The notes below the pieces were generated by a model. It was not told the DNA's origin. It was given only the letters and a program-made list of their open reading frames with translations, and searched no databases. 64,000 nucleotides of DNA. It comes from Patescibacteria group bacterium. Its GTDB lineage: Bacteria > Patescibacteriota > Microgenomatia > UBA10105 > UBA927. The stretch spans positions 76,466 through 140,465 of the forward strand of contig DATKGN010000008.1 in NCBI GenBank assembly GCA_035510735.1. The letters run 5' to 3'. Numbering within the stretch: position 1 is the first letter of the stretch; each line of letters starts with the position of its first letter. The position numbers and the translations under genes were made by a program. Of the stretch, positions 7,860 to 39,900 are shown in pieces.

Positions 7860-8150
7860 ATGATCAAACACTACTTTGTCTACATGTTAGCCAGCAAAGC
7901 AAATGGGACTATTTATATCGGTGTAACTAATAACCTTCCAAAACGAATTACTGAACACAAGCACGATTTCGCTGACGGTTTTTCGAAAAAATATCGTGTC
8001 CATAGACTTGTCTACTATGAAATGTATACTGATATTAAAGAGGCAATTCATAGAGAAAAACAATTAAAGTGGTGGAAAAGAGATTGGAAAATAAAACTGA
8101 TTATTGAAAAAAATCCTGGGTGGAATGATTTATATAAAACAATTTTCTAA
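7860..8150 (+). CDS. GIY-YIG nuclease-family small protein (UPF0213-like)
   Basis: Internal Met of the 7773 ORF (MIKHYFVYMLASKANGTIYIGVTNNLPKRITEHK) gives a 96-aa protein with the GIY..YIG..R..EH motif. The upstream part of the track ORF overlaps the preceding gene in another frame, so the start was moved. Confidence 0.7.
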   Translation: MIKHYFVYMLASKANGTIYIGVTNNLPKRITEHKHDFADGFSKKYRVHRLVYYEMYTDIKEAIHREKQLKWWKRDWKIKLIIEKNPGWNDLYKTIF

Positions 8151-13209: not shown

Positions 13210-13272
13210 GCAAAAAAATTATCGCAGGAGGTATATATTTGCCAGCACCGTCACCCGCGCGGGAACAGATTT

Positions 13273-13497
13273 TTTTGGTTAACGCGCTTACGGTCGCAAT
13301 GAAATTTAGATCCGGGCTTCAGTTCGTTCGTGAAATAATGGTTTTCTGCATTCGTAGATTATCCTCGCTCGCAAATGAATCCGGACTAAATTTTATTGGC
13401 TCCCCGCGCGGGAGGTCCAATTCTATTCGACCTAAGAAAGGTAAGCGTTGACGGATGTCCACGATCCTGCGATCGTTGGATCGAAGGACGCACAAAT
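13273..13497 (-). repeat. Copy 1 of a ~230-nt intergenic repeat element (reverse orientation)
   Basis: Reverse complement aligns over ~230 nt at ~85% identity to 16118..16349. Shared blocks include ttgtgcgtccttcgatc, ggacatccgt, cctcccgcgcggggagccaat, aatttagtccggattcatttg, cgaacgaactgaag and gcgcgttaacc. It fills the whole spacer between two convergent genes. Confidence 0.85.
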
Positions 13498-13520
13498 ATA
13501 TACCGACGAAAGATAATTTT

Positions 13521-14066
13521 TTACATTGATAAATTTTTTGTGTTTATCCCAAAAAGTTTCGTAATAACTTTATAAAATTGGAGAATAAATTGACCAAACG
13601 GAGTGATCCTGTATCCATCCCCTATTCTGGTAATTGTCCCCGTGTGAATCTGTTCGTTAAACCGTTTATCCATCGCTCCATTTTTATTTACATATGTATC
13701 AATAAATGCATTCGTAAACTCTTTCTGTGTAATCTCTTGGTTATTATTGCCTCCCATATACCCCAGAAAATATACGGATATAGACCTGTCGGCAGTTACC
13801 GGAACAAGCGTAAAAAACACGAGGTTGACACAAAAAAGAACGGTGATCGCAAGAATGATATCGTGATTTGTAACACTTGGAATAATTGCACGTACTTTTA
13901 ATAATCCCAATCCGATTGAACATACGACACAAACTATGAAAAGAAGAATAATTCCTCTATAGAAAAAAATTGTCTCGCGAAATAACGGCGTATGAAACAG
14001 TGCGATATATAATACTGTTCCCGCAACAAAACTCATTACATAAAAGAGAATCGTTTTCTTTAGCAT
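13521..14066 (-). CDS. Small integral membrane protein (3-4 TM), unknown function
   Basis: 181 aa. Hydrophobic helices (MSFVAGTVLYIALF, IILLFIVCVVCSIGLGLL, IILAITVLFCVNLVFFTLVPV) followed by a soluble tail. Confidence 0.55.
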   Translation of the reverse strand: MLKKTILFYVMSFVAGTVLYIALFHTPLFRETIFFYRGIILLFIVCVVCSIGLGLLKVRAIIPSVTNHDIILAITVLFCVNLVFFTLVPVTADRSISVYFLGYMGGNNNQEITQKEFTNAFIDTYVNKNGAMDKRFNEQIHTGTITRIGDGYRITPFGQFILQFYKVITKLFGINTKNLSM

Positions 14067-14073
14067 ATAAGTA

Positions 14074-15387
14074 CTAACCGTTGCTGACGCTGCTCTTCAA
14101 ACGCGTAATCAACCGATACCATAACACAAATGACGTCAAATACAGAAACGGCTGTGCAATACTGATATGCCGTGCATAATCGTTATATCCTAAATACACG
14201 CCGATGCCAATCTGATATAGCCCGACAAGCGCGAAAAGCACAAGTGCAATATTGTAGGTAGTTTTCTTCTTCCACGCCTCGTAGAGGAAAACAGGAAACG
14301 CAACGATGACCGTGTAATTAATATACATTGCATATTGATAGGTTCGTTGAAGCGTTTGAAACAACCAATCAAACCGGTTTGTTGCCATGACGTCAACGAT
14401 GTCGCTCTTCGAGACCAGTGCACCCGGTAGTTCAAGAGTTGATTTGATAACATATGGCAAAATTGATTGACGTGTCGCTTTCGTAATAAACTCATGAAAC
14501 GGCAAAGCGTTCTTCGCATCATACATCTCAGGAAATTGACGGTAGACTTGCCAGGGGTCATCTGATTTCATATCAATCGTCGCTTGGAGCATTGGTTTAA
14601 CTCCCTGGATATCCGGGACCTGATCTATCGGCAGATGAAGAACCAGTAATTTCCCCCATAAATTCACGTCACTGATACGACTAATAGTGGGATAGCCTGC
14701 TGTCTTTGCGTTACCCCAACTGTATCCGGCAAGCACAGCACCATAGATAAGAAGACCCAACAGGCTCCAGATGATAATATTCCGGCTCCAATGTTTCCAA
14801 ATAAGGATCACTGATAATACGACGGGAAGCGCAATAAAACTTGGACGCAGGAAGGTTCCGATTATCCACATAAGGACAAATATAATGAACGAACCCACAG
14901 TGAAACGGGATAATAATCGTATGGTTAAAAAAATTGTTAACACTAACCATAAGGAGGCAAACGCCTCTGTCAGCATCGTGTGTTCAAATAAAAGAAACGA
15001 ATAATTACACGCCATAAAAATACAAAAAATTCCGGCTGCCCACAATGTAAACCGCAAATGCACAAGTAAGAAAAACAAAAGTACGACCATCAAAATACCC
15101 CCGATTGATTGGAGGACGCGAATCAACCAAAATTCAGGAACATAAACGCCGACAACAGTATCCGGCATCGCATTTGCTTTAAATAAAAACGGCGATGCGA
15201 GAATTATCGGATATAACGGGGTCCGCCACGGATCAACAATAGTTCGATTTTGAATCATTGTTTTCGCAGTTAAATAATAACTGACTGTATCACCGGTTGT
15301 TTCAAAGAAAGGAGAATGAATATTGTAAAGAACTCTGATAGCAATCGCAACGCATATGATACAAATAACCCAAAAGAATGATTTCAT
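14074..15387 (-). CDS. Polytopic membrane protein, putative GT-C glycosyltransferase, subfamily A
   Basis: Multi-TM. GDTVSYYLTAK...RTPLYPIIL loop parallels ORF 1215. The start is set at the internal Met MKSFFW (15387), which forms an ATGA overlap with the upstream GT2 stop. The track ORF starts at 15414. Confidence 0.7.
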   Translation of the reverse strand: MKSFFWVICIICVAIAIRVLYNIHSPFFETTGDTVSYYLTAKTMIQNRTIVDPWRTPLYPIILASPFLFKANAMPDTVVGVYVPEFWLIRVLQSIGGILMVVLLFFLLVHLRFTLWAAGIFCIFMACNYSFLLFEHTMLTEAFASLWLVLTIFLTIRLLSRFTVGSFIIFVLMWIIGTFLRPSFIALPVVLSVILIWKHWSRNIIIWSLLGLLIYGAVLAGYSWGNAKTAGYPTISRISDVNLWGKLLVLHLPIDQVPDIQGVKPMLQATIDMKSDDPWQVYRQFPEMYDAKNALPFHEFITKATRQSILPYVIKSTLELPGALVSKSDIVDVMATNRFDWLFQTLQRTYQYAMYINYTVIVAFPVFLYEAWKKKTTYNIALVLFALVGLYQIGIGVYLGYNDYARHISIAQPFLYLTSFVLWYRLITRLKSSVSNG

Positions 15388-16115
15388 ACAGATTTCCCGA
15401 AATGGATATCCCAAAATACGCGCATCATATCAACAGTCGCTTCCCATACATGGATCATCCGGATTCCGCGTTTTACCTTCGCTGCTTTCTTATGAGAGAC
15501 ATTCAAAAACCCGATTCTATATCCCAATTTCTCCGCGCGAATAAGACGCTCTGCTTCATCAAACACTCCCCAGGAAATTATCGGAATGCGTGTCACGTCT
15601 TTTCGAAACGCTTTTATACTTCCTGCATCACGGGTGTCAACGCCAAAGAAATATGACGTAAACGTATTATATAAAGCGGAAACCATACTCCTCCAAACGG
15701 TATATCGCTTTTGTCGACGGACCCCAACAACGATATCATCGTTCTCTGTATCAAGTGTTTTGGCAAGCCTCAGGGTGTCTCCTGGATCCCATTCGCCATC
15801 GAGACTGAAAAGCACGATAATATCGCCCTTCGCTTTGCTGTACAGTTCACGATATGTTGTTGCAATTCCCTCATTCTTTGAGTGAAAAAACAATTTAATG
15901 TGAGATATATTTTTACAATAATTTCTCGCCCACTCCCGACTTCCGTCGAAGCTTGCGTCATCGATAAGAACGATTTCCCATTTGCGGAAAGCCTTCTTCA
16001 GTTCTTTAACAAGCTCAGGTAATATAAACGGCAAACTATGCCGGTCATTATAAATCGGCGAAACGATGGAAACTGATCTGTTCATAAAATTGTTAAAACG
16101 TACTTTAGTCGGCAT
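15384..16115 (-). CDS. Glycosyltransferase family 2
   Basis: 243 aa. SVSIVSPIYNDRHS (GT2 N-terminal motif) and IVLIDDASFDGS (DxD). The true start is possibly the internal Met at 16085 (MNRSVSIV). Confidence 0.8.
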   Translation of the reverse strand: MPTKVRFNNFMNRSVSIVSPIYNDRHSLPFILPELVKELKKAFRKWEIVLIDDASFDGSREWARNYCKNISHIKLFFHSKNEGIATTYRELYSKAKGDIIVLFSLDGEWDPGDTLRLAKTLDTENDDIVVGVRRQKRYTVWRSMVSALYNTFTSYFFGVDTRDAGSIKAFRKDVTRIPIISWGVFDEAERLIRAEKLGYRIGFLNVSHKKAAKVKRGIRMIHVWEATVDMMRVFWDIHFGKSV

Positions 16116-16117
16116 GT

Positions 16118-16349
16118 ATTTTGTGCGTCCTTCGATCTAAAGATCTCAGGATCTTGGACATCCGTAACGCTTAAGTCTTTTGCGGACTAAATATAATTTA
16201 CCTCCCGCGCGGGGAGCCAATGAAATTTAGTCCGGATTCATTTGTGAGCGAGGGTAATTTGCGAAAACAGAAAACAGTGATTTCGCGAACGAACTGAAGT
16301 CCGGATCTAAATCTCATTGCGACCTCAAGCGCGTTAACCATATACGTTT
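16118..16349 (+). repeat. Copy 2 of the ~230-nt intergenic repeat element (forward orientation)
   Basis: See copy 1. It lies in the divergent spacer between the GT2 gene (start 16115) and the GT-C gene (start 16389). It contains the 10-bp GC palindrome cccgcgcggg and the hairpin aagatc-tcag-gatctt. Confidence 0.85.
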
Positions 16350-16388
16350 AACTCACGTTAAATCTTTCTTATGCTATTATAAAGAGCA

Positions 16389-33900: not shown

Positions 33901-36900
33901 TTGATGGTGAATTTATATACGCGCGGATCGTCTGAATAATAGATTGTGCCGTTTCCGTATTATTTTCAGGTAGGAGAGGCGGGATCTTCGGTGCGGCGAT
34001 GGGCTGCGGTTTGACGGGCTGCGGCGCATTCCCAACCGCACCCGGAACAAGGTCCTTGCCGTCTACGAGCATCACAGCGTTATTCAGATCATACTTTCGA
34101 GCCCAAATGTCACCGACAAGAATTGATTCGGTCGTAGGAACGCGTATTTGAGGATCTAGAATTGCCATAAATTGACTGACATGGCCAACCGACTTCCCCT
34201 CCTCGGTTATCACACCATACCAACCGGCGAGTGGAAGCTCCATTTCTTTCTTCTTTCCAAGGCGCCCATTTATGATTTCCGTCGCCATTATCTTTTGTCC
34301 GGGCGTGAGTGTAATACAGGGGAGTTTACCGTTCTGGGCAAAAACGGATGGAATCAGTCCAATTGGGGTATCACAACCGACAGTTGCTGTGGTATTTGTT
34401 TGAGCTTGAAGCGCCGCTTTCTTCTCTTCAGCGGCTCGTTTTTGTACGTATGTTTCAAAGTCAAAATATTGTGCAAAATTATAGTCGTTATCAGCGGCTT
34501 GACCGGCTACGGCGAGCATATTTGTATTACCCCAGTCAAAAATGACAAGCGTCCCATCATCCTGGTATCCCATCTGGTCCAGGCGTACATCACCGGCTTT
34601 TAGCGTATTACCCATAAAATCCAAAAGCTCCCGTACCCGCACAATATCTTCTTCCTTACGGATGCCGTATGGTAAGAGTAATGCTTTAATTTCCTGATCT
34701 GCTATGGCAGCATCGGGTACATACCTATGAACATCTGCGATGGACTTCACAAGCTCGTCTATGGGTCCAAACGATTTCAAAGGCACTACCCGGGCTTCCC
34801 TGATATACTTCGTATCTGCGGTTGTATCTGCCACCATGCCCCATCCGGTCACCCTGGCCAGGTTCTTGCGAAATTGCGGGAAAAATAGCCATATATACGC
34901 CTCCGTTATCGTTTCTACACTGGTATCAACCTTTATAACTTCTGCGTTTTTCAAATCATATGTTTGACGACCCGAAGTAGCGGGCGATAATCGGGCAAGT
35001 GGAACAGAGTCATAATACAATTGGTTACTTCGCTGAGTCGCACTATGGACGTCGGGTTGGATATAGAGAGTAACAAGTTGATCAATAGTCTGCCGAATAG
35101 ATTGTTTCGCCTGTTCGTCAAGTCCCTGATGACTTGCGACCATGAGCGCATCCAAAAATGCCGAAGAGGAAAGGGTAACACTCGAAGGCGCATTCGTTAT
35201 AACTGGAACAACATGCATGGTTTGGTTTGCGTCTATATTGACGCGCCAAAAGCCCGACGGCGTCTCAATCAAATCGTTATTCTTTATATGGATTGGTTCT
35301 GATGTATGGGTAATAACCGGAACCCCGTTTATCCAAACATCCTTACTTCGTTGAGTCGAGGATATTATCCAATCTGCCTTCTTACCGGCCCCGACATAGT
35401 CCGTCTGAAGCAAATATCCAGGCTCAACATATGGACGTATTTCTGTTAATTGGCTATTTAGCCAATACTGACCGTCTGCAAAAATCTTGGTTTGCCGTTT
35501 GGGGTCAGGCTTATCGGCAAGCACTGGAGGCTGATTCTGAGCTTGGCCCCCTACGACATCTTCCCCCCACACCTGTATGATGGGTTGGTTGGATAATCCC
35601 GAAGAAATATCAATTTGTTCATCAGCGGCAACGGTGGGCTGGGTTCCGAATCTCCAGGCGAACCAATTCTTTACCTTGTCCCCTACTTTCCACCATCGAC
35701 CCGCGATCGGAACGGTCATGTCGGTTGCTGTAGGGGCAACAACGCCGTTTTGATCGATCGCATAGGCTTTATACCTATTCCCAGGCTTAAGCGCACAGGA
35801 TGGCGTTTGGGCAAATACGACACCGAAAAGGTTGAATGAGAAGGGCGAACAATTACCTAACGCACTCTGATCTGTTATGGTTGACGAAAACCATGGTAAC
35901 TTATTTTCAGAAACTTTAATCCACCCCCGAAGCTCCTGATCGTCTTTCAATGGACCGGTTTGTGTATCACTCCACTCCCACCTCCGAACCGAAAAGTCTA
36001 AAAATGGGGTTAATCGGTATATCAGGCGCTTTATTGATGTTAATACACGCACTACCGGATTTTGCTGGGCTAAGTTATCAACGATTCGAATGGCATGCGC
36101 CGACGGATACAAGACAATAATTTGATTTGTATCCGTACTTCCGGGAGTGGCTTCAAACTCTTTAGTTGCTAGAGCAATACCTTCAGCAGCAAATATACGC
36201 CGGGCGTCTTCCAAATGGGTCAATATTGCTTCATACCAATGAATATTATTTGGATCGAATGCGCCAACTCCGAAGATAACCATTGCTTTCACAATCACAA
36301 AATGAAGTGCGTGGAACTGAACGAGTGGACTGACTAAACCAGTAAACACTACGTCGCGCAAGAAGCTAATTGACGGAAGAAGATAACGTGCCAAGGTCAC
36401 ACCTGTAGTTAATACGCCAATATCATCTCCCCTCATAGCCATATAAAGGGGTTTATTGGCAATATCTGTAGCCAGAAGTGGTTTATGAACATCTCGGGCT
36501 ATATTTGAAACAGACCGATCAAAACGAAAACGTGAATCCTCAACCAGGGCTGAGCCATATATCGACTGAACAAGGCCTGTTTGCAAGCTTGGTAATACGT
36601 CCGGCCCCACATATTCATCCACAATAGCTTTTGTACGTTGGTTACGTATATACGCCTCGATAATAGGATCAACAAAACTCCCATACGTGTCATGATTCGC
36701 GCTAATCACTGTTACATCCACCCCATTTATGGTTACAATCTGAACTTTATCGCGTATAAACTGTTCTAGATCTGCTTCGGTGAATTTTCCCTGCGATAAT
36801 TCGATCGCAAAATCATGTTTAGCTTTATCGAGAATCTGTTGATATTCGAGTGCTCCGGGAGATCGTTTAAGCAGTTGACCTGGAACAACCCTCCCGGGAA

Positions 36901-39900
36901 TCTGTTTCAAGGTTTCAGGAGCACCAACTGCCTCAAGTGCAACATTAGCTACTAATTCTGGCCGTATATAGAGATTTTGACTTTCAGCCGCACCGTAAAA
37001 CTTCTTAGTAAATGTAAACACTGCTTTCCGCAAATCAGAATACTCCGGGGAATTTGCAACATCAATTCTCGTGACGAACGAATGGTTTGCTACAGCATTT
37101 GCTAGTTTACTCAACGCGGATACCATTGCTTTTCCCGTTGAATCATCTAAATATTCTGGATCGATTTTTTTGCTATCAGGATCATCTATCACATCTGCCG
37201 CAGTCAATTGTTCCCTAAGTAAATTTTGGTCAATAACGTTGGTTTGAGACGTAGATAGAAGAGGTAAATGCTGATATCGCGTAACAATTGTAGTAACGAC
37301 CAAGGATATAACGATTTCCATTTGGTCCGGCGGTCCTCGCTCCGTATCCGACATGAGACCATATTGATTTTCAACTATCCGTCGAACTTCTTGAGGTGCA
37401 TTCACAGAGGTAAAATCAATTTGATCAAGTTCGGTTATACGTTTTGTTAACACAGCCTGTTGAACCACCTGAACCGGATCTTGAACCTGCGGTTTGGGTT
37501 GGATTTGAGAAATTGCTCGCACTGGTTCTTGACCCGTCCCCAAATCTCCTCCATCCACCTGCATAATTGGTTGATTGGATAATCCTGAGGAAATGTCAAT
37601 TTGTTCATCAGCGGCAACGGTGGGCTGGGTTCCGAATCTCCAGGCGAACCAATTCTTTACCTTGTCCCCTACTTTCCACCATCGTCCCGCGATAGGAACG
37701 GTCATCATTGTCCCCGTCGGGGCAACCGTGCCATCCTGATCGATTGCATGGGCTTTATACCTACCCCCCGGCTGAAGCGCACACGATGGCGTTTGGGCAA
37801 AAACAAGGCCGAAGAAGCTTTCAGTTGGAATACATGAGTCATTACTCAGCGCATGCCTTGCAAAGATAGCTTTCAATCTCCTCATTTTTAAAGGACTCCA
37901 CTGACTACTGTTAAGAATATTCCACACTTCATTTGAGTCATCTCCAACAACCCGTTCAAGTAATTGGAAAAAATCAGCCTCGTGACCCGGTGCAGCAAAA
38001 TATGAATGGCCAAAGGCAATCTGAGCGCTTCCGGGCGGCAATCCCGCAAGCTGATCAACCGAAGTCAGTACGTATTCAATTGGACCATGACTTCGAAAAT
38101 ACCCGACAATAACTGACTCTAAATGAAGTAATATATAGCTTACCTTTTTATATAAAGAAGCATGTTGGACTGCTTCCTCATGGAAATAATCCGTAAAGGT
38201 CTCATTTGGTAAATTATTAGTAAAATTTATCCGAAATTGATTACTTACTACACTTGCATGTGTAAGCTCGTGTTGAATGGCTGCTGGAATGGTAAAAGGT
38301 TGTATCCCTAATAATACAGTATCTGGTATCAATGTAAGTGGATTCGGGGGGGCTCGAAAGGCATAAAAATATAAAAAGGCAGTAGCTGGGAAAATACTTA
38401 CCCTAACTGCCCCACTCGAATTATTGCTATACCCACTCATCAAAGACGTCAGAAAAAATATGGGAATGTAAAGTACGCGATATTTTGTTTTTTCCCAAAA
38501 CGTTGATGAATTATCCCGAGCTATAGTATTTTCCAGTGTCCTATGAAACATAGAAATAGTTTTCACTACAAAACTAATTGGGTCATCGATAGTGGCAGTC
38601 CGAATAATTGTAGGGAGCAGCAATTTGGGCAACCCATATTTCCTCTGCGCGCCAATAAAATCCGAGTACGCTTCCCGACGATATAATCCGGATATTAATC
38701 CGCTACTTCGCAGATCATTATTGATCACATCCGTTGGAACTCCTTCTTGTGCGGCAACCCATCCATCCATAATTCGCTGATCGAATCGCTCATATATTTC
38801 TATTTCCTTCCTTTGATCTTCGGTAACATATTGCGCGCCGTACCACTTTGTTGTCATACGAGTTGAGATCAGACTCTGATCAATCCACGGAATGAGAGAC
38901 TTATATTTCTCCATTTCCCGTCTTAATGTATCTTTTTCCGCTTGAGTCCTTGGTGTTACCTTTTGTGTTTGATTTAATATAGTTATCAACTCATCAATCG
39001 TTGGCCTCTCAGTTTCTGGACTGACTTCTGTGGCCACGCTATTACGCAATACAGTTTCAAGGTGAGATTGCTGATGAGGTATAACAGGAAAACCCTCTAA
39101 TAGACTTGTCAGATTTATTAGTTCCGGTGTCATTTTCGCAGCGAACATTATTTTGGCTATTTCTTGTTCGATGGTTCTCGTCGGGCTTGAAGCTAATCCC
39201 GAAGGAAATAATGCTGAATTCTCTTCAATTACGGCCGTTACCGCTTTTATGTTAACCAAAATATATGTTCCTTTACTGCTTGTTAATAACAATACTCCTA
39301 AATATTTTTTGAAATATGATTGTAATTGTTGAAGCTGATCTTGAGAAAAATCAATGGAGTTATTCATATATCCGACAGGAATTAATCCTGTAGCGACACG
39401 TATAAATGTGGTGTAATCTAATGACTTGCGGGTTTCCAATGGAAGTGAATCAAGTAATTGTTGAAATGATTGTAAACCCTGCATGACACTTTCTTCGGTT
39501 ATATATTTCGGTTTTACACCGCTTTTTTGAAACTCCGACACCGCGTTTTGGACAGAATTTTCTACAATAGACCAATCTATATAATCTGATGAATTTTCTT
39601 TTGTCGATGTTGTATTAGGTTGCGCTTCGGCGGTTATTCCGGAGGCATCTATCGCGGTGATGATAGGTGCATCCATCGCAGCCTCAACTATCGGTTCCGC
39701 CGCATCAATAATGTGTCCGACAACACAGCCTGCACCACCCACCGTGCCTCCCGCCGCATATACCGCCGGAACGAGATGCATCGCACCAACGCCGCACGCT
39801 TGCCGCCTAATAGCTTTGGCTTTTTGTCTTATATAATCTTTTGCCGGAAGCGCTACGTTACGAAGTGGTTGTCCTGCACGAACTGCGGCAAGGGCAATAG

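Follow-up and report, generated by a model that had tools for sequence, protein, structure and literature searches.

The stretch analysed here (hereafter the window) comprises 64,000 nucleotides of contig DATKGN010000008.1 (positions 76,466 to 140,465, forward strand) of the Patescibacteria group bacterium assembly GCA_035510735.1, and harbours two inverted copies of a palindromic intergenic element, designated copy A (13215-13520) and copy B (16086-16340), on either side of a three-gene glycosyltransferase (GT) cassette. The first 27 kb of the window constitute a glycan-biosynthesis cluster. The cassette is read on the minus strand and comprises a GT2 glycosyltransferase (15384..16085), a 437-aa GT-C-like multi-pass membrane protein (14074..15387), a homolog of which (P0002) carries a PMT_2 domain, and, as the last gene, a 181-aa small membrane protein with three hydrophobic segments (13521..14066); Pfam matches, homologs and hydrophobic segments agree with the identification of these genes in a preliminary description made from the sequence alone. 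The left neighbour of copy A is an NAD-dependent epimerase gene, the next relatives of which belong to Candidatus Gottesmanbacteria. The 311 nt that separate the epimerase stop (13209) from the convergent stop of the 181-aa gene (13521) are occupied completely by copy A, as had been claimed for both copies, whereas copy B leaves the last 48 nt before the PMT_2 ATG free in the spacer between the divergent starts of the GT2 and PMT_2-like genes. These 48 nt (16341..16388, plus strand) form the upstream region of the PMT_2-like gene outside the repeat and are conserved in a sister genome introduced below (87% over 92 nt with its copy L010B).

By blastn, 13276-13525 and 16091-16340 share 84.2% identity over 253 nt, a MAFFT alignment being concordant, so that the inverted pair of about 230 nt and about 85% identity described initially is borne out. 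The repeat finder resolves this pair into inverted arms of 141 nt (13276-13416/16200-16340, 89% identity) and 46 nt (13451-13496/16120-16165, 91% identity), and the exact stretches common to both copies measure 22, 22 and 18 nt. The R orientation denotes the strand reading GGTTAACGCG...GCACAAA, which is the plus strand of the window in copy A and the minus strand in copy B. The GC palindrome and the several GATC sites noticed at the outset are likewise features of the element: CCCGCGCGGG occurs three times in the window (13254, 13403 and 16204; 0.08 expected), in each case inside a copy, and GATC occurs three times per copy at an exact 8-nt spacing (13463/13471/13479 in A and 16134/16142/16150 in B), with no genome-wide GATC enrichment (278 vs 304 expected). 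A third copy was found neither within the 64-kb window (blastn with word size 7; covariance model) nor in an extension of 7.2 kb past its left edge (L030; covariance model).

The element is put together, as a mosaic, from no fewer than three palindromic modules that can occur apart from one another; copy A is a complete version and copy B a left-truncated one. On the plus strand, copy A opens with the left arm of an outer palindrome (13214..13254; AAAAATTATC..GGTATATATTTG..CAGCACCGTCAC), which pairs with 13449-13457 and 13489-13520, followed by the first of its two CCCGCGCGGG palindromes (13254..13263) and by the core hairpin H in R orientation (13276..13416; 158.2 bits with covariance model R1), which holds the second at 13403-13412. 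A variable linker with a small hairpin, delimited by alignment and folding (13417..13448; TCCAATTCTATTCGACC...AAGCGT), leads to the first part of the right outer arm (13449..13457; TGACGGATG, pairing with CACCGTCA of the left arm), an optional 31-nt GATC hairpin module (13458..13488) and the second part of the right arm (13489..13520; CGCACAAATATATACCGACGAAAGATAATTTT), which abuts the stop of the 181-aa gene. In the minimum free energy (MFE) prediction, the whole 311-nt spacer folds into one end-to-end closed structure, and its 28-nt terminal inverted repeat has 21 matched positions (0/1000 shuffles). Copy B, on the minus strand, consists of the core in R orientation (16200..16340; 157.2 bits; CCCGCGCGGG at 16204-16213), the GATC hairpin module (16128..16158) and the right arm of the outer palindrome (16086..16127; 73.7 bits) with no left arm (partner arm z = 0.16). 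Scans for sigma-70 promoters and intrinsic terminators gave nothing convincing inside the elements; by eye, a promoter candidate on the F strand (TTGGAC/TTGACA, 18-19 nt, TAAAAT) can be proposed as speculation. Solo copies of the outer-arm motifs were absent beyond chance expectation.

The GT-C-like cassette protein has only five homologs among 5.8 billion proteins. The closest (77%) is encoded on contig 10 (L010) of the metagenome-assembled genome (MAG) GCA_964385705.1, the sister genome and sole close relative, where the region is syntenic with the window and both spacers hold the element. A pattern consisting of two invariant hairpin-arm cores was scanned across 185,579 species-representative genomes, and true matches were obtained only in GCA_964385705.1, on contig 10 and on contig 48, the latter non-syntenic with the window; eight matches in other phyla (Poribacteria, Nocardioides, Massilia and others) correspond approximately to the chance number and fail the profile and the model. 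Covariance model R1, run on ~33 kb of GCA_964385705.1 and ~71 kb of the window's organism (~104 kb), returned five and two matches, respectively. Pattern, profile and model searches together yield five further copies on these two contigs: L010B (L010 9113-9271) at the site orthologous to copy B, L010A (L010 11970-12111) at the site of copy A in flipped orientation, the L021 copy (L021 742-880), and L024a (L024 2976-3132) and L024b (L024 6838-6975) on contig 48. GCA_964385705.1 is titled "uncultured Gammaproteobacteria bacterium", a label which looks wrong, since its genes are 76-82% identical to those of a Patescibacteria MAG and the relatives are Gottesmanbacteria.

All seven copies are intergenic and lie in glycan-biosynthesis clusters, with varying orientation relative to the flanking genes. 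Contig 48 is such a cluster (GT2, methyltransferase, GT2, GT39-like protein, RmlD-like and DegT), and its two copies form an inverted pair around a three-gene block (L024 2976-6975). Outside these two genomes, the element was absent from five more distant relatives (L011, L012, L034, L035 and L036), whose corresponding spacers measure down to 16 nt, as well as from viral contigs, phage records and plasmid records; a pattern scan of metagenomes recovered the window's own copy A together with four matches which failed the profile. Rfam 15 gave no match over the window at the gathering threshold and none over copy A at E<=5, and the tRNA/tmRNA scan found none.

These additional copies refute the simplest account of the pair, namely that the GT2/PMT_2 promoter region was once duplicated as an inverted segment, with neither a family nor a function of its own, which had been offered for the case that no further copies existed. 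Copy B does lie in a divergent promoter region, and the similarity extends to the GT2 start; nevertheless, five further copies occur at other sites in a second genome, and an element is present at both sites although that genome has reached saturation at neutral sites relative to the window. The longest GT2 open reading frame (ORF) starts at 16115 (MPTKVRFNNF...). In L010, the start of the ortholog corresponds to the second Met (16085), and the annotated start is thus probably over-extended, the extra 30 nt being element sequence. Because the ortholog begins at the second Met, the "MPTK" codons that copy A shares probably belong to the element and are not coding, a further point against a duplicated promoter. 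This explanation is very improbable.

The core H is common to all seven copies as a long imperfect hairpin of ~140 nt (TTAACGCG ... GGCTCCCCGCGCGGGA; 46-48% GC). It has 34 predicted pairs, 91.5% of cells paired and six pairs with changes on both sides; none of 500 shuffles reaches its pairing or its covariation score, and slid controls are 26-52% paired. The H arms are conserved and complementary among copies, and the apical ~60 nt exist as two unrelated subtypes: L010B carries that of L024a (88.7-89.6% identity), copy B instead that of the L021 copy (89%). Beyond the core, copies A, B, L010A and L021 extend into the variable linker and a right-hand module (TGACGGATG ... CGCACAAAT ... CGAC.AAAG), into which the 31-nt GATC hairpin of A, B and L010A is a clean insertion relative to L021 and L024b, the module being missing from four copies. 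The outer palindrome O (arms of ~40 nt) is complete in copy A, L021 and L024b, where the left module is the reverse complement of the right, with duplex energies of -38.1 (z = -8.0, 0/300 shuffles), -37.5 (z = -3.2) and -45.4 kcal/mol (z = -7.5), respectively. Its arms differ in sequence between copies and yet pair within each (GGTATATATTTG/CAAATATATACC in A, GCGCACAATTTG/CAAATTGCGCG in L024b), and the outer stem covaries (CCGTCA/TGACGG in A vs CTCTCA/TGAGAG in L024b). The left outer arm is missing from copy B and L010A, and L010B and L024a consist of H only; in L024b, O does not enclose the core, which sits beside it. The H, O and GATC modules hence combine differently in each copy, and both orientations occur. 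The left flank of copy A was also considered as an orthologous remnant of the L010 right end, and the resemblance was not significant (286/1000 shuffles).

The preliminary description had singled out the small hairpin inside the GATC module, in which a C>A change is matched by G>T in the partner arm, as a structure under selection. The change from acgatc-gcag-gatcgt to aagatc-tcag-gatctt is confirmed in the A/B alignment, where all three GATC segments of the module, with alternative pairings 1-2, 2-3 and 1-3, differ jointly (GATCC/GATCG/GATCG in A vs GATCT three times in B). In L010A, the third full-length copy, the compensation is not kept: the middle segment has decayed to GATT, and the outer 1-3 pairing survives (GUCC..GAUCC/GGAUC..GGAC). 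Owing to this decay and to the absence of the module from four copies, the small hairpin is not the conserved structure of the element, and the proposal of selection on structure holds for the much longer core hairpin instead.

The extent of constraint can be gauged from five orthologous genes of the window and the sister genome, which are 76-82% identical in protein sequence and 84%, 90% and 56% identical at codon positions 1, 2 and 3, with 48% identity at four-fold degenerate sites (n = 600). Between the same genomes, H cores are 67-89% identical and their 3' arm 97.6-100% over 42-44 nt. Since non-coding DNA is here kept at the level of second codon positions, the comparison implies purifying selection on the element sequence itself, or recent exchange, and the near-invariant arm suggests an additional sequence-specific partner. 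Copies at orthologous sites (A/L010A 80%, B/L010B 78%) are less alike than those at non-orthologous sites (A or B vs L021 88-89%, L010B vs L024a 89%), which argues for turnover or gene conversion among copies. Mismatches in the stems are biased towards G.T over A.C (21:7 overall, 17:1 in the five intact copies), and this excess is more easily reconciled with an R strand that folds by itself, whether as RNA or as single-stranded DNA, than with a mere protein site on duplex DNA.

Such features raise the question whether the copies represent a structured RNA of a new family, acting as cis-regulatory leaders or trailers or constituting independent small RNA genes, and specific to the glycan operons of this candidate phyla radiation (CPR) lineage. 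The R strand is predicted to fold into a closed multi-helix structure with outer stems P0-P2, the long hairpin and small hairpins; amid saturated neutral sites, the element is as conserved as second codon positions, covariation is found in both the core hairpin and the outer stems (differing P1 sequences still pair), and the 17:1 bias towards one-sided wobble pairs points in the same direction. Furthermore, the two genomes retain the element at the same pair of sites, and an F-oriented core lies directly upstream of GT39/PMT_2-like genes in three of the seven copies. However, a dedicated RNA is difficult to reconcile with an orientation that differs at the same site between the two genomes, with truncation at different module boundaries (L010B and L024a as H only, copy B without the left outer arm), with wholesale replacement of the apical ~60 nt between subtypes and with the L024b core lying outside the outer stems. 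The empty Rfam search even at E<=5, the want of a convincing conserved promoter/terminator pair and a whole-spacer MFE without consistent strand preference add to these difficulties, and the explanation is considered unlikely on balance.

A small protein encoded by the element is hardly credible. In public annotations, an ORF of 47 aa is called within copy B (L002 1239-1382 and L004 2326-2469, corresponding to window ~16198-16341, minus strand). Copies A, B and L010B keep this frame open; nevertheless, it is broken in L010A, L021, L024a and L024b, and the differences between A and B are distributed 5/4/7 over the codon positions, with no third-position excess.

The arrangement around the cassette bears on a further possibility, that of a DNA rearrangement device in which copy A acts as an inverton switching antisense transcription or read-through, or in which recombination between A and B inverts or exchanges the cassette. 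By blast, the window and L010 are colinear in one direction over the PMT_2 gene, the left part of copy B, the GT2, GT-C and 181-aa genes and the epimerase, whereas window 13501-13279 matches L010 12193-11973 in the opposite direction. The sister genome thus has the same cassette in the same orientation, with its two elements as direct repeats, and its copy at site B (L010B) is truncated directly behind the core, its apical part being of the other subtype; each of the two sites that can be compared holds an element in either genome, the differences being those of orientation and modules. A 100-N scaffold gap lies just beyond the flipped copy, and both junctions of that copy are in contiguous sequence. 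At this gap (L010 12218-12400), which adjoins the flipped element, the last 28 nt of the epimerase gene are duplicated on both sides, either as a scaffolding artefact or as a sign of heterogeneity at the site.

The opposite orientation of copy A in two related genomes with colinear flanks would suit such a device, as would the significant 28-nt inverted repeat which bounds copy A and spans the whole spacer, the exact stretches of 22, 22 and 18 nt shared by A and B, the recurrence on contig 48 of an inverted pair around a three-gene block, a cassette content that differs between the genomes and the location of all copies in surface-glycan loci. Phase variation is common at the surface-glycan loci of other bacteria, as in the capsule promoters of Bacteroides fragilis, and is likewise known from fimS. 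Nevertheless, 13 independent contigs of the window's species from at least nine samples are 100% identical to the window and show one arrangement wherever the elements are spanned. The lone apparent assembly break at copy A (SRR8676594) proved to be an adapter artefact and a 42-nt AT-rich gap with no alternative junction; the Logan contig SRR8676594_308 (L038 1-19) opens with the Nextera adapter AGATGTGTATAAGAGACAG, an instance of adapter contamination in a public assembly. Moreover, the two genomes agree in the orientation of the cassette, copy B and L010A lack the terminal inverted repeat, neither the window nor the related loci encode a recombinase, invertase or transposase, and at site A, where two genes end convergently, a switchable promoter would have no gene to drive. 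The earlier idea that the two copies are recombination sites through which the cassette is inverted or excised is thus not supported, and a rearrangement device of this kind is distinctly unlikely. Since the pair is direct in L010 with colinear flanks, the inverted arrangement around the three-gene cassette is best read as incidental and not as a designed switch. If an operon were transcribed across both copies, the two ends of the RNA would be complementary in the window's species only; such ends not being conserved, they are probably incidental as well.

A related and improbable reading, with a slender chance of being correct, takes the elements as cis-sites of an unrecognised surface-glycan variation system of an episymbiotic CPR bacterium, in which a protein specific for sequence and structure would recognise the invariant arm AATGAATCCGGACT... 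on one strand and either flip single elements, as an inverton-like switch of antisense or read-through transcription, or exchange multi-gene glycosyltransferase cassettes. Cassettes bracketed by element pairs are seen twice, in the window (13215-16340) and on contig 48 (L024 2976-6975). If true, rearrangement of cassettes would provide a surface-variation mechanism in a phylum where none is known, although this is a minority reading on the present evidence.

Comparison with known repeat systems places the element closest to dispersed palindromic repeats. Similar to repetitive extragenic palindromic (REP) sequences and bacterial interspersed mosaic elements (BIME) of Enterobacteria and Pseudomonas, it is extragenic, palindromic, a mosaic of separable motifs in either orientation, often placed between convergent genes and at operon ends, and confined to a narrow lineage; the roles proposed in mRNA 3'-end stability and termination agree as well (PMC3184786). 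However, REP units measure 20-40 nt, are GC-rich and reach hundreds of copies, whereas the core here is ~140 nt at 46-48% GC with seven copies in ~104 kb; the sequences are unrelated, the only REP-like unit being the embedded 10-nt CCCGCGCGGG, and REPs have an associated RAYT transposase, none of which was found among the proteins scanned (window and related loci). Elements of the type of ERIC (enterobacterial repetitive intergenic consensus), Correia repeat enclosed elements (CREE), repeat units of pneumococcus (RUP) and BOX, all hairpin-type miniature inverted-repeat transposable elements (MITE), share a length of 100-300 nt, a non-coding character, a long imperfect hairpin when transcribed, internal indels and subtypes, a position in intergenic transcribed regions, both orientations and compensatory stem changes. 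In keeping with them, the present element is 140-310 nt long and non-coding, and its sole ORF is not conserved. Its copies occupy non-homologous sites, contig 48 not being syntenic with the window, and the two sites comparable between the genomes are filled in both. The ERIC- and Correia-type families differ in having defined terminal inverted repeats and target duplications (TA in ERIC and Correia); here, the outer arms vary between copies, the O arms, which pair within a copy, are missing in 4/7, and no parental insertion sequence is known. A flanking direct repeat was detected in L010A (TTGTCAAATTC/TTGTCAAACTC, 0/500 shuffles) and at none of the other six copies, which speaks against a classical MITE; this sole candidate target-site duplication hints at a separate insertion of L010A. 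The two repeats, at L010 11960-11970 and 12108-12118, flank the core hairpin of the flipped copy exactly.

The resemblance to other systems is more limited. Invertible promoter switches (fimS, and the Mpi-dependent capsule invertons of B. fragilis) likewise consist of a segment of ~200-300 bp bounded by inverted repeats, with homologous copies across several polysaccharide loci and opposite orientations at one site, the latter here between species. Nevertheless, they differ from the present case, with its single orientation in the assembled contigs, no invertase in the window or related loci, a bounding inverted repeat in copy A, L021 and L024b only and a flipped site between gene ends. Integron attC sites, including clusters of attC sites lacking integron-integrases (CALIN), are also imperfect palindromes (60-140 nt) which fold as single strands, carry strand-specific mismatches and flank gene cassettes; attC sites, however, are in direct orientation, with RYYYAAC/GTTRRRY core sites and an integrase, and the cassettes here are multi-gene operons. 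An attC identity was rejected, as the ends read TTAACGCG...CCGCGCGGGA, the pair in the window is inverted and no integrase occurs among the window proteins. The template and variable repeats of a diversity-generating retroelement were similarly dismissed, as mismatches fall over all base classes and are not adenine-specific, the copies are intergenic and no reverse transcriptase was found among the window proteins scanned.

The element is therefore regarded, with a probability of roughly 0.55, as a lineage-specific family of mosaic, nested-palindrome intergenic repeats in Gottesmanbacteria-like Patescibacteria, akin to REP/BIME and ERIC/Correia sequences, with an incidental arrangement around the cassette. 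The option of a MITE- or REP-like repeat put forward in the preliminary description gains support from copies at unrelated intergenic sites, both orientations, truncations and module swaps. Several observations weigh against this assignment: a flanking direct repeat accompanies only one of the seven copies, no presence/absence polymorphism is seen between the two genomes (the contig-48 cassette has no ortholog closer than 54% in the window's species for such a comparison), and no transposase or RAYT was found in the sequence at hand (window and related loci). The near-100% conservation of one arm amid saturated neutral sites suits a functional, sequence-specific element more than it does a selfish repeat, the folding energies of whole spacers show no consistent strand preference, and the seven copies come from ~104 kb of two genomes, so that the covariation rests on related sequences.

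The elements reside at operon boundaries inside surface-glycan biosynthesis clusters, and their orientation and modules turn over. In the favoured reading, they are rearranged over evolutionary time through flipping, truncation and exchange of apical parts between copies, with selection keeping the stems and part of the sequence. They would probably be transcribed as parts of neighbouring mRNAs, in which the long hairpin could serve as an orientation-tolerant RNA end structure, that is, a terminator, insulator or 3'-end stabiliser between operons, and perhaps, in addition, be bound by a dedicated protein. Orientation-independent action would explain the tolerated flip between convergent genes. 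ERIC and Correia elements undergo co-transcription and influence how stable mRNAs are, and a bias towards convergent gene pairs is known for REPs (PMC3184786); by analogy with these systems, we infer a terminator or stabiliser role for the present element.

In the literature on CPR repeat elements that was searched, no repeat-element family is described for CPR/Patescibacteria. Genomes of this group are small and tightly packed, and the element fills nearly all long spacers of the glycan loci, which makes it a useful marker. The glycan loci are probably central to host-cell attachment. The element indicates that selection maintains non-coding sequence within them, and it provides a concrete target for metatranscriptome and read-level analyses of termination, RNA processing and phase variation. 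Annotators should exercise caution over the probably spurious 47-aa ORF and the probably over-long GT2 start within the element.

Apart from the element, several features of the surrounding sequence deserve mention. The L024a spacer of 643 nt (L024 2752-3394) contains unrelated inverted repeats upstream of the core (GGGTAGTGAAATTTTC / GAAAATTTTACTCCCC and AAGCGCGAGGGTAGT / ACTCCCCCCGCGCTT), which may represent a further hairpin module belonging to this mosaic system, and the element copy on L021 is accompanied by ~1 kb (L021 1-970) without an ORF above 87 aa in an otherwise tightly packed genome, a region in which genes may have decayed or other non-coding elements may lie. A stand-alone GIY-YIG protein of 88 aa is encoded within the glycan cluster (window ~7884-8150; L002 9430-9696); it has no counterpart in the corresponding L010 region and may be what is left of a mobile or homing nuclease. 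One ORF of 11,992 aa (27950-63928, minus strand) takes up 36 kb of the window, which is a very large proportion for a CPR genome of small size; Pfam recognises in its ~12,000 residues a weak PP2C_2 and a SecA DEAD-like domain and nothing else, and a 286-nt direct repeat lies inside it (35542-35827 / 37528-37813, 84%). The glycan cluster of a distant relative includes a BrnT-like toxin / CopG antitoxin pair (L011 4116-4651).

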